From: an uncultured Actinomycetota bacterium
GTDB taxonomy: Bacteria; Actinomycetota; Humimicrobiia; Humimicrobiales; Humimicrobiaceae
Length of the DNA: 64,000 nucleotides
Reading direction: 5' to 3'
NCBI GenBank assembly: GCA_964387355.1
Contig: CAYLWJ010000107.1
Span: 1,669 to 65,668, forward strand
The notes beneath the pieces were generated by a model. It was not told the origin of the DNA. It saw only the letters and a program-made list of their open reading frames with translations, and ran no database searches. The translations under genes and the position numbers were made by a program. Shown here in pieces: positions 1,272-58,311 of the stretch; the first letter of the stretch is position 1, and the number at the start of each line of letters is the position of its first letter.

Positions 1272-4200
1272 ATGAAAAAAAACGCTAAATTGGAACTTAT
1301 AAAGGAATTTAACGATAGAATCTCCTTTGAACTAACCGAAAGAAAAATCTACAGTCATGACATTGCTTCAATTCCCAGCATTATTAAACCATTATTAGGC
1401 AGCAAAGTAGCCGAAGCAGTTGTCCAGCCTATTTCTGAAGAAGAACTTATATTTTTAACTAAATGGGCATCTGAAAATAAAATTGCACTAGTCCCTAGAG
1501 GAAAAGCAACATCTGGGTATGGTGGTGTACTACCATTAAAAAGAAGTATTATAGTTGATTTTTTTAGGATGAATAAAATTATTAATATTAATAAACAAAA
1601 TAATACTGTAACTGTTCAACCAGGAATAATTTGGGAAAAATTAGATAAAGAGTTAAAAAAACATGGACTAGCTTTAAGGCTTTACCCTTCAAGCTATCCT
1701 GGCTCTACAGTTGGTGGTTGGTTTGCTCAAGGTGGTGCAGGTATTGGGTCATATGAATTTGGATTTTTTAAAGAAAATGTTGAAAGTATAAAAATTGTTT
1801 TGCCAAATGGCAATGTAGAAAAATTTGAAAAAGAAAATTTAGATTTAATTTCAGAAGCCGAAGGAATTACAGGTTTTATAAGTGAAATAACTTTTAAAGT
1901 TATGCCATTTGAAGAATTAGAGATTTTAGCAGTTTCAACACCTGATGTTTATAATTTACAAAAGTTCTTAAGTCTAATTATTGATTTTAAAATTCCAATT
2001 TGGTCTGTTCTTTTTATTAACCCAAAAATGGCTGAGTTAAAAAATCAAACTCCACCAAAAGAACATGTTCATTTTAATTCAGACAATAAAATCGACAATA
2101 AAAGTACTTTAACAGATGAAATAATTTTACCAGAAAGCTATATTTCCACTCTAGCTTTTCCTAAAAAAAGCAGCAGTCAAGTTAAAGATGGCCTTGAAAG
2201 TATTCTAAATGAAACAAATTCAACTCTACTTAGCAGTAATATAGCTCAACACGAATGGGAAAACCGCTTTAATACTATGGTAGTAAAAAGGCTTGGACCT
2301 AGCATGGTTCCTTCTGAATTTATCATACCTCTTAATAAGTTAGGAGATACCCTTACAGAAATCATAACAAAGGTAAAGCAGCCAATTATTAAAGAAGGCA
2401 TGGTTATAAAAAGAGACCAAAGTGGCAAGTCTGAAGTTGTAATACTTGGCTTTATACCCAGTGATGAAAGAAAATTTAGTTATAACTTTGTGTTTGCATT
2501 AACTCTTACAATTTTAAAAATAGCACAAAAAAATAACGGCAGACCTTACTCAACCGGATTGTATTTTGCAAATAAAGCTCAGATGGTTTTGGGTAAGGAA
2601 AGACTCCAGAAATTGCTAAATTTTAAAAATGAAGTTGACCCATTTAACATTTTAAATCCAAATAAAGTTTTTGGACTTGGCAGAGTAAATTTATTAATGA
2701 AAACTGCTGAAACCTTAGAACCCTTAATTAAGCCAATTGCCAATAGGGTTATAACAAATATTGGGCAACGATTTGATAAAAAAGACATAAAAGACATTCC
2801 CGCTGACGTTGCATGGTATGCATACTGCTGTTCTCAGTGCGGGTATTGTGTCCCAGAGTGCGACCAATTTTATGGAAGAGGCTGGGAAAGCCAAAGCCCA
2901 CGAGGCAGGTGGTATTGGCTAAGGTTATATTTAGAAGGTAAAGAAAAATGGTCGCAAAAAATGGTGGACTCCTTTTTAGCATGTACAACCTGTGAACTTT
3001 GCAATCTTAAATGCTCTGTAAACCTTCCAATAGAACCATCATGGATGAAAATGAGAGGACGTTTAATTCATGATGAGCATAAAATGACAATTCCTCCTTT
3101 TGAAATGATGGCTGCAGCATTAAATAGAAATGGAGACATTTGGGCTGGATACAGAGAAAATAGAGAGAAATGGTTTCCTCAAGATTTAAAGGAAAAACAT
3201 TATAATCCAAATATTAAAAAAGATACCATATATTTTGCTGGGTGTACTGCAAGCTATGTTGAAAATGATATAGCAATGGCAACAGTAAGACTGCTTGACA
3301 GCGCTGGAGTTGATTTTGATTATTTAGGAACAGAAGAGAATTGCTGCGGCATACCAATGCTAGTAGCAGGAAAATGGGATGATTTTATAAATACAATGAA
3401 AAACAATATAGAAGCAGTAAAAAGCAGAGGTGCTTCAACTGTAATAGCATCTTGTCCTGCCTGTGATATGATGTGGAGAACTGTTTATGTCCAATGGGCA
3501 AAAAAATTGGGGCTTGAATATAATATTAAGGCAAAACATTATAGTGAAGTTATTGCAGAAAAAATTAGAAATAAAGAATTCCATTTCCCTCAAAAAGCAG
3601 AACTTAAAGAAAAAATCAATGTTACTTGGCATGATTCCTGCCATATTGGACGAGCCTCTGGTGTTTATGATCCACCAAGGGAAATTATAAAAGCTATTCC
3701 AAATGTTAATTTAATTGAAATGGAAAATAATAAAGAAAATGCTCACTGTTGCGGTAGCGTCCTAACTTTAATTAAAGAACCTCCAGTAGCAGCAGAAGTA
3801 GGAAAAATTAGGCTAGATGAAGCAGTAGAATGCGGAGCTGAAAAAGTATTATCACTTTGCCCATGCTGTGAATTTCAATTTAGGGTAACAAAGGAAAAAA
3901 AGAATATAAATTTAGAAATAGTTGATTTAGCAAGATTTGCATCCAAAGCTCTAGGCTATGATTTTCCTGAGCCAAACCCTGAAGTTCAGCGACAATGGGC
4001 TGTTTTTGAAGCCATGATTTCTCTTATGAGCCCAGAAGGCTTTGCATCCGTAATGAAAAGTATGTGGCCTCAGCTGATTTCAGCAATGCCTTTAAAAATG
4101 GGCTCAATGATGAAGCTCATGGGAAAAATTCCAGGCGCGCTTAAAATGATGAAACCTCTTTTCCCAGTTTTATTTCCAATACTTTTACCCAAGATGATGC

Positions 4201-4382
4201 CAAAAGTAATGGGTACTATGCTAAAAATCATATCAGATAAAATACCAATGCCTGATTATATGCTTGAACAGATGCCAGAGCTAATGCCAAGAGTTATGGA
4301 TAATTTAATGCCCCATATGATTGGAGATGTTATCCCGCTTGTTGCAGATGATATGATAAATTATCTTCAAAATAAAAAATAA
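1272..4382 (+). CDS. FAD-linked oxidase (PCMH FAD-binding domain) fused to a 4Fe-4S ferredoxin domain and two Cys-rich CCG domains (Dld / GlcD-GlcF-fusion-like, plausibly D-lactate or glycolate dehydrogenase), with an unusual Met/Pro-rich C-terminal tail
   Basis: N-terminal VVQPISEEELIFLTKWASENKIALVPRGKATSGYGG matches the FAD_binding_4 signature. CCSQCGYCVPECDQF and CTTCELCNLKC are 4Fe-4S motifs. CTASY...NCCGIP and WHDSCHIG...AHCCGS are CCG-domain motifs as in GlcF/GlpC/HdrD. The final ~130 aa are Met-rich. Confidence 0.75.
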   Translation: MKKNAKLELIKEFNDRISFELTERKIYSHDIASIPSIIKPLLGSKVAEAVVQPISEEELIFLTKWASENKIALVPRGKATSGYGGVLPLKRSIIVDFFRMNKIININKQNNTVTVQPGIIWEKLDKELKKHGLALRLYPSSYPGSTVGGWFAQGGAGIGSYEFGFFKENVESIKIVLPNGNVEKFEKENLDLISEAEGITGFISEITFKVMPFEELEILAVSTPDVYNLQKFLSLIIDFKIPIWSVLFINPKMAELKNQTPPKEHVHFNSDNKIDNKSTLTDEIILPESYISTLAFPKKSSSQVKDGLESILNETNSTLLSSNIAQHEWENRFNTMVVKRLGPSMVPSEFIIPLNKLGDTLTEIITKVKQPIIKEGMVIKRDQSGKSEVVILGFIPSDERKFSYNFVFALTLTILKIAQKNNGRPYSTGLYFANKAQMVLGKERLQKLLNFKNEVDPFNILNPNKVFGLGRVNLLMKTAETLEPLIKPIANRVITNIGQRFDKKDIKDIPADVAWYAYCCSQCGYCVPECDQFYGRGWESQSPRGRWYWLRLYLEGKEKWSQKMVDSFLACTTCELCNLKCSVNLPIEPSWMKMRGRLIHDEHKMTIPPFEMMAAALNRNGDIWAGYRENREKWFPQDLKEKHYNPNIKKDTIYFAGCTASYVENDIAMATVRLLDSAGVDFDYLGTEENCCGIPMLVAGKWDDFINTMKNNIEAVKSRGASTVIASCPACDMMWRTVYVQWAKKLGLEYNIKAKHYSEVIAEKIRNKEFHFPQKAELKEKINVTWHDSCHIGRASGVYDPPREIIKAIPNVNLIEMENNKENAHCCGSVLTLIKEPPVAAEVGKIRLDEAVECGAEKVLSLCPCCEFQFRVTKEKKNINLEIVDLARFASKALGYDFPEPNPEVQRQWAVFEAMISLMSPEGFASVMKSMWPQLISAMPLKMGSMMKLMGKIPGALKMMKPLFPVLFPILLPKMMPKVMGTMLKIISDKIPMPDYMLEQMPELMPRVMDNLMPHMIGDVIPLVADDMINYLQNKK

Positions 4383-7023: not shown

Positions 7024-9882
7024 CTATTTTACAACAATATTTACCAGCTTATCAGGAACAGTTACAATCTTTAAAATCTTTTTACCTTCAATAAATTTTA
7101 AAACTTTATCGCTCCTTAATGCTTGCTCTTTAAGTTCAGCCTCAGATGCGCCTGCAGGTAATTCTTTCTTATCCCTTAATTTTCCATTTACCTGAAATAC
7201 AATAGTTAATAGTTCCTGTTTTGCAATTTCTTCATCAAATTCTGGCCATTTTTGCCTATGTATGCTAACTGGCATTCCAAACAAATGCCATAACTCTTCA
7301 GTTATAAAAGGAGCAATAGGTGAAAGAAGCTGAAGAATTTTTAAACTTACTTCAAATAATAGATCAGGATTTTTATTCAAATCATCTACTTCTTCATTGT
7401 ATTTATTAATGGAATTTGTCAGCTCCATTATTGCACTAATTGCAGTATTAAAATTAAATCTATTTAAAATATCAAAAGTTACTTTTTTTATCGTTTGATG
7501 AAGCTTTCTAAAAAGCTCCTTGTCATTAGCCGATATTTTATTTGACTTAAAATCTTTCCTTAAATTTTGCTCTATTTGTTCTAATTGCTCTAATCGTTTT
7601 AAATATCCTAGCTGTTCAACTGGTTCACGCTGCTTTTCTTGCGTAGGCTGCTTTTCTTGTATAAGTAGCTTATCTCGTTGATTCTGCTTAAGCTGAACTT
7701 GTTGTCTAAGCTGTTCCTTATTTTCTAACTGTTCTTGCTGTTTAAACTGACTCTCTATAATTGTATTAATTGTATTGCTTTTTCCATCATTATTTTTTAT
7801 AAAATATAGATTTTCACTAATTATTCTCCAAAACCTTTTTAAAAATCTATTGGCTCCTTCTACACCTGTATCACTCCAATCAACCATTGAATCTGCAGGC
7901 CCTATAAACAATATATATAACCTTAGGGTATCTGCACCATACTTATTATATATCTCAGACGGATTTACAATATTGCCCTTTGACTTTGACATTTTTTGTC
8001 CGCCTAATGTAACAATTCCATGAGGGTAGTATTTTGTAAATGGCTCTTTAAAATCAACTAGTCCAGCATCAAATAATACTTTTGTAAAAAAACGGGCATA
8101 AATTAAATGCATTGTTGCATGTTCAATCCCGCCAATGTACTGGTCCACTGGCATCCAATACTTTACAGAATCTTTACTAAAAGCTGTATTATTTTCATGC
8201 GGACTGCAATACCTTAAAAAATACCATGAAGAACAAACAAAAGTGTCCATTGTATCAGTTTCTCTTTTTGCTTTACCTTTACACTTTGGACAAGTGGTGT
8301 TAACAAAATCTTCACAATACAAAAGTGGTGAAAGTCCAGTTGGTCTAAAGTCAACATTATAAGGAAGCAACACAGGCAAATCTTTTTCAGGAACCGGGAC
8401 TATACCGCATTTATCACAATAAATTATTGGTATGGGCGCTCCCCAGTATCTTTGCCTTGAAATAAGCCAATCTTTTAACTTATAATTTACTTCAAAATCA
8501 CCAATAGCCTTTTCCTTTAAAAACTTGGTAATCTCTTTTTTACCAAGCTCTGAAGACATTCCACTAAACTTTCCAGAATTAATCATTATACCTTTTTCAA
8601 CATAAGCTTCATTTAATGAATCCGAAGGCTTTCCGTCGGGAGAAATCACCTGTCTTATTGGTATTTTATATTTTTTTGCAAATTCAAAATCCCTAGAATC
8701 ATGTGCAGGAACAGCCATAACAGCGCCTGTACCATACTCAAGAAGAACATAATTTGCAATCCAAACTGGAACTCTTTCATTATTTACTGGGTTTATAACA
8801 TACCGCCCTGTAAAACAGCCAATTTTTTCAGCTTCAGTTGAACCTCTTTCAATATCTGTCTGCCTAGAAATAATATCTTTAATTTTTTCAACTTCTGCCT
8901 TTCTTTCACTATCAACAACAATCTTATCAACTAATGGATGTTCGGGGGCAAGGATAAAAAAGGTGACTCCAAAAAGTGTATCAGGCCTTGTTGTAAATAC
9001 AGGAATTTCAATATCGCCATCAATACCCTCAATATTATCATTGCTTTCTTGATTGAGGTTGTTATTAATTTCTTCAGATTTAATTTTTTCTAATTTAAAA
9101 ACTACTCTTGCACCTTCGCTTCTTCCAATCCAGTTTTGCTGAATAGTAAGAACTCTTTCTGGCCACCCGTCCTTAATAATTTCCATATCATCTAATAGCC
9201 TTTGTGCATAATTAGTTATTTTAAAAAACCATTGTGAAAGAGTCCTTCTTCTTACTGGATTATCACATCTTTCGCATTTCCCATCTATAACCTGCTCATT
9301 TGCAAGAACAGTTTGACATGAATCACACCAGTTAACTGGGCCTTCCTTTTTTTCAGCAAGTCCCATTTTATATAAAAGTAAAAAAAGCCATTGCGTCCAT
9401 TTATAATAATCTGGTTCACTTGTAATTATTTCATCCTCAAAATTATAGGTCATACCCATTCTTTTAAGAGCTTTCCGCATCTTCTCAATATTTGCCATTG
9501 TGCTATCTTTTGGATGAATTCCATTTTTAATTGCAGCATTTTCAGCAGGTAGACCAAATGCATCATATCCAATTGGGTGTAAAACATTATAGCCTTTTCT
9601 TGAGAATATTCTTGCCAGTACATCGCCAATTGTATAATTTCTAGCATGGCCCATATGAGGCTCGCCAGATGGATATGGAAACATTTCAAGGATATAATAT
9701 TTTATTAATTTATCTGGAAGGTCATTGTTTTTAATTTCAAGGACATTTGTTTTATTTTCTTCCCAAACCTTAAGCCATTTTTGTTCTATCTTTTCTGGAA
9801 TATACTCAAGGTATTTTTGCTTTATTTTTTTTCCAAAATTGTCTATTTCATAGCTTTTTTTTTCTGAATCTTTTATATCCAA
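7024..9882 (-). CDS. leuS: leucyl-tRNA synthetase
   Basis: HIGH-type motif PYPSGEPHMGHARNYTIGDV and KMSKS motif GQKMSKSKGN. Includes a CP1 editing domain. Length 952 aa, with a Q-rich low-complexity insertion near aa 700-765. Confidence 0.95.
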   Translation of the reverse strand: MDIKDSEKKSYEIDNFGKKIKQKYLEYIPEKIEQKWLKVWEENKTNVLEIKNNDLPDKLIKYYILEMFPYPSGEPHMGHARNYTIGDVLARIFSRKGYNVLHPIGYDAFGLPAENAAIKNGIHPKDSTMANIEKMRKALKRMGMTYNFEDEIITSEPDYYKWTQWLFLLLYKMGLAEKKEGPVNWCDSCQTVLANEQVIDGKCERCDNPVRRRTLSQWFFKITNYAQRLLDDMEIIKDGWPERVLTIQQNWIGRSEGARVVFKLEKIKSEEINNNLNQESNDNIEGIDGDIEIPVFTTRPDTLFGVTFFILAPEHPLVDKIVVDSERKAEVEKIKDIISRQTDIERGSTEAEKIGCFTGRYVINPVNNERVPVWIANYVLLEYGTGAVMAVPAHDSRDFEFAKKYKIPIRQVISPDGKPSDSLNEAYVEKGIMINSGKFSGMSSELGKKEITKFLKEKAIGDFEVNYKLKDWLISRQRYWGAPIPIIYCDKCGIVPVPEKDLPVLLPYNVDFRPTGLSPLLYCEDFVNTTCPKCKGKAKRETDTMDTFVCSSWYFLRYCSPHENNTAFSKDSVKYWMPVDQYIGGIEHATMHLIYARFFTKVLFDAGLVDFKEPFTKYYPHGIVTLGGQKMSKSKGNIVNPSEIYNKYGADTLRLYILFIGPADSMVDWSDTGVEGANRFLKRFWRIISENLYFIKNNDGKSNTINTIIESQFKQQEQLENKEQLRQQVQLKQNQRDKLLIQEKQPTQEKQREPVEQLGYLKRLEQLEQIEQNLRKDFKSNKISANDKELFRKLHQTIKKVTFDILNRFNFNTAISAIMELTNSINKYNEEVDDLNKNPDLLFEVSLKILQLLSPIAPFITEELWHLFGMPVSIHRQKWPEFDEEIAKQELLTIVFQVNGKLRDKKELPAGASEAELKEQALRSDKVLKFIEGKKILKIVTVPDKLVNIVVK

Positions 9883-43921: not shown

Positions 43922-43998
43922 TGGAGCGGGAAACGGGATTCGAACCCGCGACCCTCAACTTGGAAGGCTGATGCTCTAGCCAACTGAGCTATTCCCGC
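43922..43998 (-). tRNA. tRNA-Gly (anticodon TCC), CCA encoded
   Basis: Reverse complement GCGGGAATAGCTCAGTTGGCTAGAGCATCAGCCTTCCAAGTTGAGGGTCGCGGGTTCGAATCCCGTTTCCCGCTCCA. Confidence 0.85.
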
Positions 43999-44039
43999 TC
44001 GTAAAGGAAACAAATTTTTGCAAAACACATTAATTTTAA

Positions 44040-44118
44040 TGGTCGGGGTGAGTGGATTTGAACCACCGACCTCCTGCTCCCAAAGCAGGCGCGCTAAACC
44101 AAGCTACGCCACACCCCG
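44040..44118 (-). tRNA. tRNA-Pro (anticodon TGG), CCA encoded
   Basis: Reverse complement CGGGGTGTGGCGTAGCTTGGTTTAGCGCGCCTGCTTTGGGAGCAGGAGGTCGGTGGTTCAAATCCACTCACCCCGACCA. Anticodon loop TTTGGGA. Confidence 0.8.
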
Positions 44119-44370: not shown

Positions 44371-44580
44371 ATGAGAACAACAATAAATATCAATAATGAA
44401 GTAATAAAAGAAGCCCAAGCTTTATACAACACAAATAATCGTTCTAAGGCTATAGAAAATGCCATAAAAGATGCAGTAAGATTTAATAAATTGAAAGAGT
44501 TAATGTCTTTAAAACTAAAAATAAATTTTGATGAAGAATATATAAAAAAAATAAGAAACAGTGAAATAAATGAAGCATAA
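44371..44580 (+). CDS. vapB: type II antitoxin, VapB-like
   Basis: 69-aa protein (MRTTININNEVIKEAQALYNTNNRSKAIENAIKDAV...) overlapping the downstream PIN gene by 11 nt. Confidence 0.65.
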   Translation: MRTTININNEVIKEAQALYNTNNRSKAIENAIKDAVRFNKLKELMSLKLKINFDEEYIKKIRNSEINEA

Positions 44581-44956
44581 AATTATTGTCGATACTTCTG
44601 CATGGATTGAATATTTTAAAAACAACACAACTTTTGTAAAATTTATTGAAGAGAATTTATATATTGATTCAATTTTTATCACAGGTCCAATAATTTCTGA
44701 GCTTCTTCAAGGCACAAAAACTGAAAAAGAGTTAGACCTACTTCTATATTCAATTAAAGCAGTTCCATTTATAGAGTGCAGTTACGATGATTGGGTATCT
44801 GCTGGTCAATTGTCTTTCAATTTAAGAAAAAATGGTAAAATTATCCCGTTAACAGATTTGCTTATTGCTGTAATTGCGCTAAAAAACGATGCTAAAGTAT
44901 TAACACTTGACAATCACTTTAAAGAAATACCTAAAGTCAAATTAATAGAATTGTAG
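44570..44956 (+). CDS. vapC: PIN-domain toxin VapC
   Basis: MKHKIIVDTSAWIEYF... supplies the first acidic residue. The central ELLQG region and LLIAVIALKNDAKVLTLDNHF at the C-terminus give the PIN acidic quartet pattern. Confidence 0.75.
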   Translation: MKHKIIVDTSAWIEYFKNNTTFVKFIEENLYIDSIFITGPIISELLQGTKTEKELDLLLYSIKAVPFIECSYDDWVSAGQLSFNLRKNGKIIPLTDLLIAVIALKNDAKVLTLDNHFKEIPKVKLIEL

Positions 44957-45925: not shown

Positions 45926-46199
45926 ATCTTTCCTTTCTGTTCTCTTTATGAATTTTCAAATTTGTAATTTAACTTAAAAACCTTATAAACCTTGAATTAT
46001 ATAATAATGTAATTAATCATAAACCAATTAGTTATTTCTGAATAATTGACTAAAATTTAAAAACTAAAAAAATTTGTGCTTAATGAATTCAAATTTTTTA
46101 CAAAGTAATGAATCATTTAGCAAGAACTACTTAATAAACAAATTTTTTTATATTGATTATAAAACATATATGCCAACATAAGGTTATTACAAAAATATA

Positions 46200-46388
46200 T
46201 TGACATTTTTAAATGAAAGAATAAACACCATGAAAAGGACTACAATTTATTTAGAAGATATAAAAATCAATAAATTACAGGAATATTCGTATAAAAATAA
46301 AATTAATACAGTCTTTACTTTTGATAGAAAATATTTCAATATATACAAACCTAAAAATTTTAAAACCCTAAATATTGTCCCTCTTTAA
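46200..46388 (+). CDS. small ORF, possible relic of a ribbon-helix-helix antitoxin
   Basis: MKRTTIYLEDIKINKLQEY resembles RHH antitoxin N-termini (KRTTIYLxEDL). It sits alone in an 800-nt non-coding interval. Confidence 0.2.
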   Translation: MTFLNERINTMKRTTIYLEDIKINKLQEYSYKNKINTVFTFDRKYFNIYKPKNFKTLNIVPL

Positions 46389-46722
46389 CTAACCAGTCTT
46401 AACATTAATACTATTATCAGGATGCAAAATATTTCAGAAAAAAATTTTTTATTATATTTTATGACTTCAACACCTGCTTATTTTAACATACCTACCATAT
46501 GTCTAAAATAACTTGACATTTTATAATCTCCATTTGATCCTAAAGTAAATATCTATTTATCTATATATATTTTTAAAACAACACTGGATAAAAAATAATA
46601 ATTATGTTTAATTTTTTTAAGTCATTGAAATATAATAAATATTATACTAAAAATATAGAATAATAATTGAATAAATGATATAAAATTATAATAAATAGCA
46701 AATAGTATAATTTAATTATAAA

Positions 46723-47352
46723 ATGAAAACAAAAAGGATAACAAAAAAAGGTATTGTAGTTTTATTTTTTACTTTATCTATTTTTATTGCAGTAGCTGTC
46801 CTGCAAGCTTTTATTTCTGCACATAATATTCTTAACTTTTTTATAAGATTTTTTGGTCTATGGGGTTATTTATCAATGGCAATTGCAGCAATTATGACCC
46901 CATTTTTAAAGGAAATTAACCAAATGTTTGGTAGACCATTTCTAATAATACATCATATCTTTGCATATGCCGGCTTATTTTTAATAACACTACATCCTAT
47001 TTTTTTTGCAATATATTCATCAACTATAGATGTTTTTATCCCAGATTTCTCATCATGGTATAACTTCTGGCTTACTGCAGGCAGGCCTTCTCTAATAGTC
47101 CTTTATATAGCACTTATTGCAATACTACTTCGAAGAAAAATAAAACCTTGGAGAATAATACATGCTCTTATGCATTTAATGCTTTTATTAGGGTTTATCC
47201 ATGCTATATTAATAGGAACGGATTTTAACTCTAAAGCAATACTTGTTATTTATTCTGTTGTTTTTGCAGCAGTAATTGTTTCATTTATAATAAAAAGACT
47301 GCAGCTTTACAGAAATTTAATAAAAAAGAAAAAAATACAAAAAGGATGGTAG
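46723..47352 (+). CDS. ferric-reductase-like transmembrane (FRD; YedZ/MsrQ-type) bis-heme b membrane protein
   Basis: Six predicted TM helices. TM3 HHIFAYAGLFLITLH and TM5 HALMHLMLLLGFIH each carry a His pair spaced 13 residues apart, the classic bis-heme FRD signature. The stop overlaps the next gene's start (ATGGTAG). Confidence 0.7.
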   Translation: MKTKRITKKGIVVLFFTLSIFIAVAVLQAFISAHNILNFFIRFFGLWGYLSMAIAAIMTPFLKEINQMFGRPFLIIHHIFAYAGLFLITLHPIFFAIYSSTIDVFIPDFSSWYNFWLTAGRPSLIVLYIALIAILLRRKIKPWRIIHALMHLMLLLGFIHAILIGTDFNSKAILVIYSVVFAAVIVSFIIKRLQLYRNLIKKKKIQKGW

Positions 47353-48050
47353 AAATGAATTTTAATTTAATACAAAAAAGAAAACTCAATAGTAAATATA
47401 ATATTGTTTATAATATTACTCAAATATCAACAGTTTTTATACTTGGCTTAGTAATTATCCTTATAGCATTGACCAGTAGTTGTAAAAGTTCAAGCAATTT
47501 ACCTGACAAGACAACTGAATTATCCAATACAGAAGCTTCTTTAGACAAAAATTTAGACAAAAACATCGAAACAACTTTTAAAGCTGACGGAATTATAGAG
47601 AGTGGAGAGTATTATGGTTATAAAGATTTAGATGGCTTTGAGGTCTTCTGGTCAAATGCTAATGAAATTGCTTATGTTGCAATTAAAGCCAAAACTGAAG
47701 GATTTGTAGCAATTGGTCTACAACCTGGCAAGACAATGAAAGATGCCGATATGATATTTGGTTTTATTAAAGATGGTAATGTCACAATATATGATATGTT
47801 CAGCACTGGTAATTTTGGGCCTCATAAACCTGATGTTGAGCTGGGCGGTACTAATGATATTATCGATTTTGGTGGTTCAGAGTCAGGCGGATTTACAATA
47901 CTGGAGTTTTCAAGAAAGCTTGTAACTGGCGATAATTTTGACATTGATATAACATTAGGTATTAATAAAATTATATGGGCAATAGGTTCAACGGACAATA
48001 CTGAAATTAAACATATAAAAAGAGGTTATGGTGAAATAGAGCTTAAATAA
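47346..48050 (+). CDS. extracytoplasmic DOMON-domain protein (probable lipoprotein; putative heme b / electron-transfer domain)
   Basis: N-terminal signal sequence with a Cys (ALTSSC). DOMON-type motifs EGFVAIGLQPGKTMKDADMIFGF. ~120-aa beta-rich domain. Translationally coupled to the FRD gene. Confidence 0.65.
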   Translation: MVEMNFNLIQKRKLNSKYNIVYNITQISTVFILGLVIILIALTSSCKSSSNLPDKTTELSNTEASLDKNLDKNIETTFKADGIIESGEYYGYKDLDGFEVFWSNANEIAYVAIKAKTEGFVAIGLQPGKTMKDADMIFGFIKDGNVTIYDMFSTGNFGPHKPDVELGGTNDIIDFGGSESGGFTILEFSRKLVTGDNFDIDITLGINKIIWAIGSTDNTEIKHIKRGYGEIELK

Positions 48051-48436
48051 TCAGTGATTTTATTTCTTTAATATTATTAATTATAAATTTACAGAATATA
48101 AAAATAAAAATTTGAACCTCCAAATTTTATTTTCTAAAATACTTTTCCTATTTTATCTTTAAAAATTTATTTTTTTTCAAATTATATATTGGCATAAATT
48201 GAGTCTGCACCTTTTCCTACTACAATATCTATAATCATATTTTATTGAATAATGATTAAGATAATAAATAATTTTACAAATTAATATATTTATATTATAA
48301 TTTATAAAAGTTTATATTATTATTTAAATATATATATACTATAAATTATTATTATAAATATTTATAAAAATATTTTTTAATTATTAACATTTTTATAAAA
48401 TATTATTAAAGTGACATAATAATTCTGGGGGATAAA

Positions 48437-48916
48437 ATGATTTGGGTTAAGATATTAATTAATTTTATACATTTGGCATCATCTTATGCTTGGTTAGGCT
48501 CAATAATATTTATTGCTTTTGTAGTAAAACCAATACTTAAAAAAGAAATTGAAGCAATTTCTTCTGAGATACTTAAGGTTTTCTTTTCGGTATTCAGAAA
48601 AATTACAGTAATTTCTGTGATATTAATTATTTTCTCAGGTATACTTATGTCTGTTAGGTTAACTAGTAATGAGCTTTCCATCCTTAGTACATACGGAATC
48701 ATTTTTCTTATAAAACATCTATTAATAGCTGTTATAATTGCTCTTTCGCTTGTAGCAAATTTTTATGTTTTTCCTAAAATCAGAAAACTTTGCCAATTAA
48801 AAGCTCCAAATGAGTTATGCTACTATCAGAAACAACTTATAGCTGTATTATCTATAGCAATGATTTTTGGTTTTATTGTTTTGGCGCTCACTGCAACAAT
48901 GCAATTTTTGTCTTAA
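48437..48916 (+). CDS. 4-TM membrane protein, possibly CopD-family-like
   Basis: 159 aa, four hydrophobic helices, with a conserved His in TM1 (INFIHLASSYAWLGS). The assignment is tentative. Confidence 0.35.
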   Translation: MIWVKILINFIHLASSYAWLGSIIFIAFVVKPILKKEIEAISSEILKVFFSVFRKITVISVILIIFSGILMSVRLTSNELSILSTYGIIFLIKHLLIAVIIALSLVANFYVFPKIRKLCQLKAPNELCYYQKQLIAVLSIAMIFGFIVLALTATMQFLS

Positions 48917-48961
48917 AAAAATTACCAAAATTTTAAATCAAATAAATTTGGAGGATAAGAA

Positions 48962-49696
48962 ATGTACAGTTCAACTTCTAACAAAGAAAAAACAATTGAA
49001 AAGTCCATCGCTACAGGCATAGCAGTGGTTATTTTAGGTTTTTTATTACTATTGTTTCCTATGCATAGTATTTTTGCAAAACCTTCAGAATGTGATGACA
49101 TGCCTAAAAGTGGAAGTGTTAAATTAAAAGATGAGCATATTGGAAAAGACTGGGATAGCTTTAATCATGAAAACTGCAATGAATATAAAATTGATAGTGG
49201 ACAAATTTTATGGCATCTTGTTCTTAGCCCGGTTGGAAAAGATGCTGCTGCAACAATCAATGGTGTTTCAGGAGTCAATAAAGGAGGAAGCATTCACTGG
49301 ACCTTTATTATCTCATCTAAAACTGCAGAGGCGTGGGTCGCAGAAGTGAGTAATGGCTTGTGGTATACAGGACCAGATTGCAAATTACAGACGGAACTTA
49401 GGGTAAGCCATACTTGTTCTGGAGAAACGGACACCACAGAGACTACTGCTCCTGAAACAACTGCTGCTGAGACAATTGCTGCCGAAACAACTGTATCAGA
49501 AACCATAACTACTGAAACTACAACAACACCAACTTTAGAGACACAACAATTAGTAAACCTAGAGCCAAAAGGAATAATCGAAGTGCTGGGAATTTCAACT
49601 TTAGCTTATACAGGATTTAACTTTATATACCTTGTTTTTGGTGTTATTTCTTTTATTGCTGGTCTTGTAATACTAGCAGTTAAAAGGATTTTCTAA
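48962..49696 (+). CDS. cell-surface protein with a Cys/His-containing N-terminal domain, Thr/Glu-rich stalk and LAYTG sortase-type sorting signal
   Basis: N-terminal signal/TM segment. A ~115-aa domain with 4 Cys and several His. (TETTAPETTAAETIAAETT...) stalk. LAYTG followed by a hydrophobic stretch and a KR tail. Strong RBS GGAGGA 6 nt before the ATG. Confidence 0.6.
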   Translation: MYSSTSNKEKTIEKSIATGIAVVILGFLLLLFPMHSIFAKPSECDDMPKSGSVKLKDEHIGKDWDSFNHENCNEYKIDSGQILWHLVLSPVGKDAAATINGVSGVNKGGSIHWTFIISSKTAEAWVAEVSNGLWYTGPDCKLQTELRVSHTCSGETDTTETTAPETTAAETIAAETTVSETITTETTTTPTLETQQLVNLEPKGIIEVLGISTLAYTGFNFIYLVFGVISFIAGLVILAVKRIF

Positions 49697-49851
49697 TTGT
49701 CTTCTAATTGTGGGTGTAAGTCTTAGTTTATATTAATATTTAATATGATTGGTCAAAATATTGATTAAAAAAGTTTGCCAAAAAATAAGCTTTTTTAAGC
49801 ATGTAGCTTTTTACAAAATATTTAAAAATATTTTATATGCCGATAAAGCCT

Positions 49852-50492
49852 TCAATGTAAAAAATTATAATTTGAAACAATACTTTGAAAAAAGTTCTTT
49901 ACCTCTTCAACACTGTATTTCTCTTTTAAAAATTCTACATTAAAATCTTTAATATCTTCAAAATAAACAAGCTGAGACAGAAAAAGTTTTTCAGAAAATT
50001 GCCCAGAAAATTTCTCCTTGGCATCTGCAATTACTTGGCTAAAGCTAAAACCATTTTTTAGAATAATAAATAGATCAACATAATCACGATATTCAGATCT
50101 TCTTCCAATAGCGTATGCTTTGTCTGAAGCAATATCTTTATAAGATGACAGTTTTATAAAATTTTTAACTACAACCGGTTTGTATTTTCTTTTAAAAGGG
50201 AAAAAAATAAATGAAACTTTTATTATGCTATTTGCAATAAATGTAAGCTCATCCCAATTGTCAACAAGAATTTCAATTTGTGAATTAAAAGCCTTTGATG
50301 CTAGCTTTACAAAACCTGATGGAATTTCATATGTGGAAAAAATAAGTCAAAAACGTATGATCTCCTGATAGGTTTTTGCAGCATAAGCGCAGTCCCGCCT
50401 GAAAGAAATCCTTTCTTGTTAAAAAAGGGTTCAAGGCTAATTAGGATTTTTTCTTCGCTCTTTTTAAGCAGATTAATAAAAACTTCTGACAT
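49852..50492 (-). pseudogene. AbiEii/AbiGii-like nucleotidyltransferase (type IV TA / abortive-infection toxin family), frameshifted in a poly-A run near 50335-50341
   Basis: N-terminal part (50307..50492) reads ...FLSGGTALMLQKPIRRSYVFDLFF, matching the GGTAL...HRxSxDLDxF motif. After a +1 shift the frame continues ...KAFNSQIEILVDNWDELTFIANS...YAIGRRSEYRDYVDLFIILKNGFSFSQ... to a stop at 49854-49852. Confidence 0.55.
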
Positions 50493-50847
50493 AGTTACTT
50501 TCTTTAAGCTCTGTCTTTATTTTAAACATATAATTCTTTATAAATAGAAAAACAGGCCTTGTATATACTTTTAAAGGATTATTCATAAAAACATTTATTA
50601 CTTCCTCTTTTGAATATATACCTACTATATACTTTATATCTTCAATACTGCCATAAGCTAAAACCTGATTAATTATATAAATTTTGTCTTTTTTAAAATC
50701 CAAGGTTTTTATATCTCTTGACCACAGAAGGGGCTTTAGGCTTTTAAGGATAATATTATTGTCTTTTTCATATTTTTCTTTAAAAACAGATTTTTCAGGG
50801 TTTATTTTATTAGGTTTTTTTATATTAGCTGTATTTACTTTTTCCAT
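50473..50847 (-). CDS. small protein encoded immediately upstream of the AbiEii-like gene (putative cognate antitoxin/partner)
   Basis: 124 aa. ...LLWSRDIKTLDFKKDKIYIINQVLAYGSIEDIKYIVGIYSKEEVINVF. Overlaps the downstream gene start by 20 nt. Confidence 0.45.
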   Translation of the reverse strand: MEKVNTANIKKPNKINPEKSVFKEKYEKDNNIILKSLKPLLWSRDIKTLDFKKDKIYIINQVLAYGSIEDIKYIVGIYSKEEVINVFMNNPLKVYTRPVFLFIKNYMFKIKTELKESNYVRSFY

Positions 50848-51191
50848 ATGTTAAATCAGTTAATGATGAATAATTGATAAAAATAAAAAATTTAAAATAA
50901 TTTGTGCTAACTAAACAATAATTTCTTAGTAAATAAGTAATTATTAAGCTTACCTAGTATAAGCATAGGCTAATTATAGCATAATATTTGAACAATTTCT
51001 TAAAAGAGTAATTTTTGTCAAAACTTAGTCTTACTGTAAAGACCTGTGAATATAGCTCTGATTTACTTATAAGGCTTTGCTTGCAAGAAAAGTTTAAGGT
51101 ATTAAGAAGCCTCACTTATGAGGCTGATTTGCTTATATAGCTTGTTTTATACCTTATAGCCCTAATAAAAAATAGCAATTAAATACAAATT

Positions 51192-57282: not shown

Positions 57283-58311
57283 TTATTTTTTAGGTATCCT
57301 ATAATTCTTTCCTGTTTCTATAAATGCTTTTATATTAGCTTCAGGAGTTTCTTGTGGTAAATCACACCCTGTACTTAATATAAAATTAGGATAAGGATCC
57401 ATTTCTTTTAGTAAATTACTAACCTCTTCTTTTACCTCATCAGGAGTTCCTCTAAGTATTGTATTAGTTGGACTTATATTTCCAATTAAAACTACATTTT
57501 TTGTAAGAATTTTGGCAGCCTCTTTAAGATCAACTCCAACTTCTTTTGAATCAAGGCTTAAACCATCTACACCTGCGTTTACCATCTCATTAAGCAAATG
57601 CATTGTGTTTCCACATGTATGATAAACTGTATTTACCCCACTATATATACAGCTTTCAACGATATGTCTAACATAATGTGCTGAAAAATTTCTAAATTGT
57701 TCAGGTCCCAGCATTACTGCAGTTGGTTCAAGAACACAAATTATATCTGCTCCAGCAGAAATAAGCATATTTACATATTCCTGTATTTTTTCGGTGGTAA
57801 TATCACATATTTTTCTTAATTTTTCTGGTTCCATAATAGATGCCATAGCTGCTTCATCAGCACCCATTAATAAAGCAGCAACAGAATAAGGACCTGTTAC
57901 ATAAGCTCCTTTTATTACATATTCAGGAAGTCCTATTTTCATAAGCTTAACAGTATTTACATAACCATTAATTCTACTATCAAAAGAAATATTTATACTA
58001 GCAATTCGATCAAGTTCGTTTATGTCAAATTTATCCTTTGGAACAGTTGCAGAATCTTCTCTTGGAAATACAGTAAATCTTCCTAAAGCATTTGCTTCAA
58101 CTGATAAATCCATTAGCGGAAATATTACATCAGGTTTAAATTTTTCTACTAATATTTTTAATACCTTGTAATGCTCACCATAATTTTGTTGAGCAATTTT
58201 AATATTGCTTCCAATAAGCTCAACTCCTGGGAAACCTAAAAGTGGAGCAACTAGCCTTTTGCCTTCCTTGTATTTGTCTTTAACTATTTCTATTAATGAT
58301 TTTCGTTTCAT
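57283..58311 (-). CDS. uroporphyrinogen-decarboxylase (URO-D) family protein (MtaA/CmuA-like methyltransferase or HemE-like)
   Basis: 342 aa TIM-barrel family protein. The N-terminal KRLVAPLLGFPGVELIGSNIKIAQQN and the central YHTCGNT motif are typical of URO-D-like enzymes. Confidence 0.65.
   Translation of the reverse strand: MKRKSLIEIVKDKYKEGKRLVAPLLGFPGVELIGSNIKIAQQNYGEHYKVLKILVEKFKPDVIFPLMDLSVEANALGRFTVFPREDSATVPKDKFDINELDRIASINISFDSRINGYVNTVKLMKIGLPEYVIKGAYVTGPYSVAALLMGADEAAMASIMEPEKLRKICDITTEKIQEYVNMLISAGADIICVLEPTAVMLGPEQFRNFSAHYVRHIVESCIYSGVNTVYHTCGNTMHLLNEMVNAGVDGLSLDSKEVGVDLKEAAKILTKNVVLIGNISPTNTILRGTPDEVKEEVSNLLKEMDPYPNFILSTGCDLPQETPEANIKAFIETGKNYRIPKK

Follow-up and report, generated by a model that had tools for sequence, protein, structure and literature searches.

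A locus of four genes, named here A, B, C and D, was analysed on the plus strand of a 64,000-nt stretch of contig CAYLWJ010000107.1 from an uncultured Actinomycetota bacterium (this whole stretch is called the window, and all coordinates are window positions). The locus was found to be best explained as two autonomous two-gene modules, A-B and C-D, standing side by side in this species, and we put the probability of this reading at about 55%. Gene A encodes a short membrane protein with a ferric-reductase domain (FRD) and gene B a DOMON lipoprotein, and the two products are most likely to make up a membrane-spanning electron conduit with three haems, as predicted from their sequences. Gene C encodes a half-size CopD protein and gene D a surface protein with a sorting signal. 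The four open reading frames (ORFs) were found where a preliminary description of this DNA had placed them, and the genes are genuine and uncharacterised.

The division into two modules came from the neighbourhoods of homologous genes. At least five other lineages had the A-B pair but no C-D beside it, and at least five other contexts had C-D but no A-B, nor any FRD or DOMON gene nearby. All four genes stood together only in the window species. The preliminary description had treated them as a single system, to be given up if the genes never co-occurred in related genomes, and the co-occurrence check found them together nowhere else. Furthermore, the B-C gap is 386 bp long, very A+T-rich and contains a promoter-like site; this site and the conserved promoter-like motif at the A homologues together suggested that A-B and C-D are separate transcription units. 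The 100-nt stretch at 48,051-48,150 of this gap, which contains an A/U-rich hairpin, gave a z-score of -1.4 and was statistically not distinctive. A single reductive metal uptake system, in which B fed by A would reduce Cu(II) or Fe(III), D would capture the metal and C would import it in the manner of yeast Fre1 and a permease, is quite unlikely. It would account for the shared strand of the genes, which all fall within a single 3-kb block, and for the 99.7% conservation of this block in two metagenome contigs from this species despite a different upstream flank. It would also agree with the reduction of ferric and cupric substrates by CYBDOM proteins (PMC10784544) and with the import of copper by CopD/YebZ, during which the oxidation state of the metal is unknown (PMC11923076). 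These points are opposed by the absence of C-D from every one of the at least five other A-B loci and of A-B from every one of the at least five other C-D loci, by the promoter-like site and the 386-bp gap between the pairs, and by the lack of a recognisable metal-chaperone fold in D. Combined cupric or ferric reduction and copper uptake is possible on the strength of adjacency in this one species.

The pairing of A with B was tight and recurrent. The stop codon of A overlaps the first ATG of B (ATGGTAG), and a second ATG of B at 47,355 lies 2 nt past that stop; this second ATG is the probable start, judging by the homologues and by the version of B in a database, which is 231 aa long. The close coupling of A and B proposed earlier holds with either start, as a stop/ATG overlap or as a 2-nt gap. 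B was located directly 3' of A in the window species (loci L001, L088 and L089) and in L169, L009/L099, L091, L094 and L095, and the neighbourhood check for FRD and DOMON gene pairs, which had been suggested before, recovered A-B in at least five other lineages. In L169, where A is 71% and B 53% identical to the window proteins, the pair stands alone between opposite-strand genes and nothing C- or D-like was found within 10 kb. A and B are a conserved pair, only within one clade; among 80 genomic loci of B relatives, L009 was the only one with an A relative. Gene A has no Shine-Dalgarno sequence, and a TATAAT at 46,706-46,711 lies 11 nt 5' of its ATG. When a shared operator was sought 5' of the A homologues, no palindrome was found, only a conserved promoter-like motif (TGGACT, approximately 17 nt, TGnTATAAAT) ending approximately 13 nt before the ATG. 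Because of this motif and the missing Shine-Dalgarno sequence, A-B seems to be transcribed as a unit of its own with almost no leader.

The product of gene A contains six hydrophobic segments and aligned with positions 1-120 of the 121 of Pfam Ferric_reduct (PF01794) with an E-value of 2.9e-5 and 24.5 bits, the gathering cut-off being 28. The same model matched 25 of 33 A homologues at E < 1e-3. Relatives of A formed just 39 clusters among 5.8 billion proteins, some of them carrying the source names YedZ or MsrQ. In the alignment of 33 relatives, H77, H78, H147 and H160 were invariant, and H91 was absent only in four distant members. These histidines are spaced by 13-14 residues in transmembrane segment (TM) 3 (H77/78-H91) and by 13 in TM5 (H147-H160), which is the pattern of NOX/FRE proteins, and the FRD bis-haem signature attributed to A earlier was thus borne out. 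The positive-inside rule places the N-terminus inside, with H77/78 in TM3 and H147 in TM5 predicted near the ends that face the cytoplasm and H91 and H160 near the opposite, outer ends. Accordingly arranged candidate ligands would be H77/H78 with H147 for an inner haem and H91 with H160 for an outer haem. The protein ends 17 residues past TM6 and lacks the C-terminal FAD- and NAD(P)H-binding dehydrogenase domain of full-length NOX/FRE reductases. Because this domain is missing and no NCBIfam model matched, A was classified as a short FRD of the MsrQ kind and not as a demonstrated MsrQ. No molybdoenzyme (MsrP, Oxidored_molyb) was detected among the window proteins scanned.

The product of gene B matched DOMON (PF03351) with 84.5 bits (cut-off 32.7) and an E-value of 9e-24. 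It is laid out as a signal with a lipobox (...IALTSSC, Cys46), a low-complexity linker and the DOMON domain at residues ~80-234. The lipobox cysteine was near-invariant in 27 homologues and the motifs GFVAIGL and MKDADMIFG quoted in the preliminary description are present, in agreement with its assignment of B as a DOMON lipoprotein. Relatives of B formed 234 clusters, and all 120 listed carry DOMON and are mostly 200-260 aa long. In bacteria they were found in Dehalococcoidia and other Chloroflexota, in metagenome-assembled genomes (MAGs) labelled Actinomycetota and in Atribacterota, and in archaea in Methanothrix and other Methanotrichaceae, Methanospirillum, Heimdall-, Hadarchaeota and Thermoplasmatota. 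Across these bacterial and archaeal loci, M131 (80/80), H160 (80/80) and H223 (78/78) were invariant. The b haem of the DOMON domain in CYBDOM proteins and cellobiose dehydrogenase is held by a Met/His pair, and the ligands in HYP1, M90 and H174, are 84 residues apart (PMC10784544); M131 and H223 of B are separated by 92 residues.

The B-type DOMON was also observed in larger proteins. It stands at the C-terminus of pyrroloquinoline quinone (PQQ) beta-propeller dehydrogenases (L022, 119-1063; L028, 31-2061; L031, 6321-8471; L042, 6309-8498), the hosts of these fusions being Humimicrobiia, Atribacterota, Dehalococcoidia and Methanothrix harundinacea; L022 is from Ca. Calidifonticultor (class Humimicrobiia, Actinomycetota). 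By their domain order these proteins look like quinohaemoproteins that would use DOMON as the cytochrome domain. Methanothrix fuses the B-type DOMON to DUF2202 (L079, 7917-9062, and other loci; 381-388 aa), and the archaeal protein at L066 1562-4252 joins Ig-like/Glucodextran_B repeats, a B-type DOMON and cytochrome b561, a prokaryotic architecture of the CYBDOM type. The fusion of this DOMON type to PQQ dehydrogenases, cytochrome b561 and DUF2202 suggested that B is a redox (cytochrome) module. Pfam detected no cytochrome b561 domain in either A or B, so the pair itself falls outside the CYBDOM proteins.

From the observed domains and residues of A-B, we infer haem binding, a donor, an acceptor and a direction of electron flow as follows. 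Two b haems would be stacked across the membrane in A through the His pairs in TM3 and TM5. B would be lipid-anchored on the outward side of the membrane and its DOMON domain would carry a third b haem through Met131 and either His160 or His223. At the inner end of this putative wire, the donor might be quinol or a soluble reductase, located in the membrane or the cytoplasm. At its outer end, the cytochrome exposed to the wall space would pass electrons to an extracytoplasmic partner or receive them from it. The possibility that the DOMON domain of B binds a sugar or another ligand instead of haem, and that A-B is no haem wire, was considered since both haem and sugars have been reported as ligands of DOMON domains (PMC10784544). 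It is very improbable, given that none of the 78-80 loci deviates at the Met or at either His, that fusions join this DOMON type to the redox partners cytochrome b561 and PQQ dehydrogenase, and that DOMON pairs with bis-His membrane proteins.

The direction of flow was weighed separately. In the inward alternative, B would accept electrons from extracytoplasmic dehydrogenases or an external reductant, and A would feed them to the quinone pool or the cytoplasm. The fusions to PQQ dehydrogenases in Humimicrobiia, Atribacterota, Dehalococcoidia and Methanothrix are in its favour, as is the concentration of the B-relative family in strict anaerobes, Methanothrix included; fungal cytochrome-domain dehydrogenases, in which the haem domain is the electron acceptor, offer an analogy for these fusions. 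No PQQ dehydrogenase was present among the window proteins scanned, and the known FRD proteins (NOX, FRE, STEAP and MsrQ) all work outward, as described in part in PMC3591440. Inward flow was regarded as unlikely.

Two known systems resemble the predicted A-B conduit. Like MsrPQ (YedYZ) of E. coli, the locus has a short, FRD-only membrane protein, predicted to bind haem, whose gene adjoins that of its putative extracytoplasmic redox partner; however, the putative partner is a haem DOMON lipoprotein instead of the molybdoenzyme MsrP, and the membrane protein comes first in the gene order. Like the eukaryotic CYBDOM proteins (e.g. Arabidopsis HYP1/CRR) and the FRD-DOMON fusions of Naegleria and oomycetes, A-B is predicted to combine two membrane b haems with a DOMON b haem, the DOMON being of the same Pfam family. 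Unlike CYBDOM, the membrane part is an FRD and not cytochrome b561, the conduit is split between two separate proteins with B lipid-anchored, the host is an anaerobic prokaryote, and neither an ascorbate site nor a dehydrogenase domain is present. Thus, A-B is best read as a putative split, FRD-based conduit that resembles MsrPQ or CYBDOM and belongs to neither.

A different membrane partner was observed in Dehalococcoidia, where approximately 12 loci have a DOMON gene followed by a gene for an 80-85-aa protein with two TMs. Some of them form a tandem of a DOMON lipoprotein, a ~82-aa 2-TM protein, an MsrP-like molybdoenzyme and a ~80-aa 2-TM protein (L017, 1418-3316; L025, 7848-9775; L021, 7770-9708; L032). 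The MsrP-like gene, present in several of these loci, matched Oxidored_molyb with an E-value of 4e-36. Two His in TM2, spaced by 14 residues, are invariant in the 2-TM proteins of either kind, and the one DOMON-adjacent member scanned (L025, 8562-8810) matched no Pfam family. The 2-TM proteins may be minimal dimeric haem-b anchors replacing MsrQ. Their homology with the A family was considered and not detected, as the hhalign match was not significant (probability 0.2%) and the His-x13-His of TM3 was the sole aligned stretch; they are analogues and not demonstrated homologues. From this gene order, the DOMON lipoprotein occupies the genomic slot of MsrP beside a small bis-His membrane protein, which supports the reading of a membrane haem protein with an extracytoplasmic redox partner. 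In the literature, we found no description of DOMON paired with MsrQ/YedZ, nor of such pairing in Methanothrix or Dehalococcoidia. In a wider, speculative and rather improbable extension, B-type DOMON lipoproteins with a small membrane b-haem partner would be a widespread, unrecognised route of extracellular electron exchange in strict anaerobes that is independent of c-type cytochromes. In this Actinomycetota-like lineage the partner would be an FRD, whereas Dehalococcoidia would use the ~80-aa 2-TM protein with two His. The hosts would include Methanothrix, for which the machinery of electron uptake in direct interspecies electron transfer is not known, and in the window species the route would additionally feed D and the half-size CopD.

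The product of gene C exceeded the Pfam CopD threshold (PF05425; 41.5 bits, cut-off 32.1), so its earlier description as CopD-like was upheld. Its residues 3-156 correspond to positions 145-290 of the 295 of the NCBIfam CopD model NF033808, with 50.6 bits against a cut-off of 195. The four TMs match the C-terminal four-helix half of CopD/YebZ, and C is not a full-length importer with eight TMs. When three C homologues were compared with E. coli YebZ by hhalign, C 10-117 aligned on YebZ 152-254, placing H12 of C (FIHLASSYAWLG) on His154 of YebZ (AIHLICAAAWFG); the region of YebZ His135 is lacking and the H154 equivalent alone is kept. The H154A substitution in YebZ abolishes copper uptake, and ~35% of the CopD family in the set analysed there are "truncated" proteins that have fewer than five helices (PMC11923076). 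H12, H94, C119 and C128 were invariant in the C subfamily, and the positive-inside rule would put both His in the outward half of the membrane and the Cys-x8-Cys in a cytoplasmic loop. The search of PDB with the sequence and profile of C returned no relatives, and no CopC domain was detected among the window proteins scanned.

The product of gene D has the organisation of a sortase substrate, its C-terminus consisting of LAYTG, 23 hydrophobic residues and KRIF. Its ribosome-binding site GGAGGA (48,950-48,955) lies 6 nt 5' of the ATG. This strong ribosome-binding site, the LAYTG anchor, the Thr/Glu stalk and the four-Cys, multi-His domain had all been recognised in the preliminary description and were found again here. 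The L[AP]xTG signal was kept in eight of nine close homologues and was present in more distant ones too. LAxTG is the motif of class E sortases; this, together with the occurrence of the nearest A and B relatives in Actinomycetota-labelled MAGs, speaks against the Firmicute host assumed earlier, and the organism is probably an Actinomycetota-like one of low G+C and deep branching. No sortase gene was detected among the window proteins scanned. The D sequence matched nothing in Pfam or NCBIfam; close relatives formed just nine clusters among 5.8 billion proteins, and a profile of the N-terminal domain found 27 representatives among 1.84 billion. The structure model of this domain reached a pLDDT of 92. 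No relative was obtained among viral contigs, and nothing at E ≤ 0.001 among the viral structures of BFVD. A copper chaperone of the YcnI, CopC, DUF1775 or PCuAC kind was tried as an identity for D and rejected, since neither a sequence family match (Pfam and NCBIfam included) nor such a structural neighbour of the model was found; the suggested YcnI/CopC-like module was given up on these grounds.

The cysteines and histidines of the D domain showed different patterns of loss. C72 and C152 were lost together in P0180 and P0181, and C44 and C140 were lost together in others (e.g. P0177 and P0178). Because the pairs are co-lost, the four cysteines behave as two disulfides; the Cys/His domain proposed before is thus present, and its four Cys are better explained as disulfides than as metal ligands. 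H59, H85 and H150 were widely conserved, and P0176 has D, N and T in place of all three, a joint change that points to a single site. Among sortase-anchored Gram-positive proteins, such as class E LAxTG substrates and Isd-type relays, D resembles the known members in its signal peptide, ligand-type N-terminal domain, repetitive stalk and LAxTG with TM and basic tail, and differs in that its N-terminal domain is a new family without a Pfam model.

C and D were linked in nearly every context. A C homologue of 152-159 aa was located directly 5' of the D homologues P0002 (L004, L005), P0003, P0005, P0006 (L007) and P0176 (L171), so that with the window locus, where the genes are 45 nt apart, C precedes D relatives in 6 of the 7 distinct contexts whose DNA extends far enough upstream, and the gaps measure 6-110 nt. 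This constant linkage implies a shared function. We suggest from the gene linkage, and by analogy with CopC-CopD and YcnI-YcnJ, that C-D might couple capture or binding at the surface to a membrane step of the CopD type. C would contribute a half-size CopD with the outer-face His, essential for copper uptake in YebZ, and the invariant cytoplasmic Cys-x8-Cys; D would be displayed by sortase on its Thr/Glu stalk as a disulfide-braced beta-sandwich with a conserved His triad. Like the CopC-CopD systems (YobA-YebZ-YebY of E. coli; YcnI-YcnJ of B. subtilis), the module has a CopD-family gene beside an extracytoplasmic beta-sandwich partner and keeps the equivalent of YebZ His154 in C. Unlike them, C is the C-terminal half only, and D is unrelated to CopC, YcnI and PCuAC in sequence and fold and is anchored to the wall by sortase, whereas those partners are periplasmic or membrane-tethered. 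In the literature, no description was found of CopD paired with a sortase substrate.

Several observations count against the two-module reading and the functions proposed for the pairs. For A, NCBIfam, with its MsrQ model included, gave no match at E ≤ 1 and the Pfam score stayed below threshold; the sequence and profile searches of PDB with A and B returned no relatives. A relatives at ≤ 58% identity have no DOMON neighbour, nor any constant neighbour at all, and in the close L092/L093 lineage B is reduced to a C-terminal remnant of ~53 codons (L093, 941-1099). For C, the hhalign alignment with YebZ was weak (probability 7.9%, E 0.004), its register agreeing with the NCBIfam mapping. For D, the homologue P0009, which has an LPMTG signal (L002, ENA k141_176414, 8001-8801), lies on a phage-like contig with RecT, YqaJ and Phage_rep_org_N and has no C; P0176 retains its C neighbour without the His triad, so the C-D link is independent of this site; and the more remote proteins with a D-type domain are of large, adhesin-like build, carry LPxTG/LAxTG signals and SpaA or Big_2 domains and in one case lie beside a sortase gene, which agrees better with adhesion than with metal handling. 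Separately, the P0009 gene was observed directly 3' of a CAP-domain gene, and a CAP and DUF4214 protein lies near the distant D-domain protein P0183. The last group of findings bears on a tentative alternative, to which we give a minority share of the probability, namely that D is a plain surface adhesin or wall protein without a metal role and C an unrelated or accessory small membrane protein. The multi-domain architecture of the distant relatives next to a sortase, the phage-borne homologue and the dispensability of the His triad for the C linkage would all be expected of an adhesin, and the position of C 5' of D in six of the seven contexts (all except P0009) would not.

The features of the locus and its surroundings are collected in Table 1. 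The window is ordinary chromosome of 28.5% G+C with housekeeping genes for LeuRS, ValRS, MreBCD, PBP2, RodA, ClpXP, trigger factor and Obg. Upstream of the locus there are seven tRNA genes, and the Rfam scan of the window returned tRNAs only. A Ham1 gene accompanies VapBC on the left, and a low-molecular-weight phosphatase gene lies on the right. The VapBC pair, the toxin-antitoxin remnants and the tRNA-Gly and tRNA-Pro genes agree with the variable, accessory region near tRNA genes that had been described. PADLOC gave no defence-system match for A, B, C, D or the 62-aa ORF.

Table 1. Positions of the four genes, their signals and the neighbouring elements in the window.
Feature	Position	Strand	Description	Basis
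tRNA-Gly and tRNA-Pro	43922-44118			
VapB/VapC	44371-44956		left of the locus	
Direct repeat, left copy	46026..46121	+	96 nt	blastn breakpoint; repeat family, alignment
Decayed toxin-antitoxin remnant	46200-46388		62-aa ORF resembling the start of an RHH antitoxin joined to the end of a PIN toxin	
Gene A	46723..47352	+	209-aa, 6-TM FRD (MsrQ-like) protein	Pfam and alignment
Gene B	47346..48050 (probable start 47355)	+	DOMON lipoprotein	Pfam and homologue alignment
Weak A/U-rich hairpin, then U-rich tract, 3' of B	48101..48133	+	possible terminator	
Promoter-like site, best sigma-70-like match of the region	48273..48301	+	TTTACA-17-TATAAT, 11/12, 136 nt 5' of C	
Gene C	48437..48916	+	159-aa, 4-TM truncated CopD	Pfam and NCBIfam
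Gene D	48962..49696	+	sortase substrate with new beta-sandwich domain	
D signal peptide	residues 1-39			
D beta-sandwich domain	residues 40-154 (49079-49423)		115 residues, new	
D Thr/Glu stalk	49439-49513		15-nt repeats	
D sorting signal	49601-49615		LAYTG, then TM segment and KR tail	
Broken nucleotidyltransferase-toxin-like gene	49750-50492	-	interrupted after 61 codons	
DUF6922 antitoxin-like gene	50473-50847		intact; beside the broken toxin gene (together 49750-50847)	
Direct repeat, right copy	50854..50949	+	96 nt	repeat family, alignment

The block that carries the locus was also found in another setting. By blastn, window positions 46,026-50,315 were 99.7% identical to a JGI metagenome contig on which the upstream flank is different and contains fucosidase, GGDEF and radical-SAM genes. 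Contig L089 has the same arrangement as the JGI contig; L001 and L089 belong to the window species and keep the four-gene block as a unit. The identity to L001 and L089 begins exactly at the start of the left copy of the 96-nt direct repeat. The two copies are 73% identical, are spaced by 4828 nt and bracket a 4.8-kb segment comprising the four genes and the toxin-antitoxin remnants; no integrase was seen at this block. Elsewhere in the window, a 1036-aa fusion (1272-4382) combines an FAD_binding_4 dehydrogenase, a 4Fe-4S dicluster and two CCG (HdrD-like) domains, and a URO-D family gene is located at 57,283-58,311; either could have a bearing on electron supply or haem synthesis.

These findings describe in D a very rare new surface domain without structural neighbour, and its constant linkage to a half-size CopD provides a handle on the role of the uncharacterised "truncated CopD" proteins. 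If A-B is a true three-haem wire, it would be a prokaryotic, split, FRD-based counterpart of the plant CYBDOM ferric and cupric reductases, and would provide a simple electron route to or from the wall space for uncultured anaerobes without multihaem c-type cytochromes. Because the B-type DOMON is present in Dehalococcoidia, Atribacterota and Methanothrix with other partners or fusions, one biochemical characterisation would annotate hundreds of "hypothetical" proteins.

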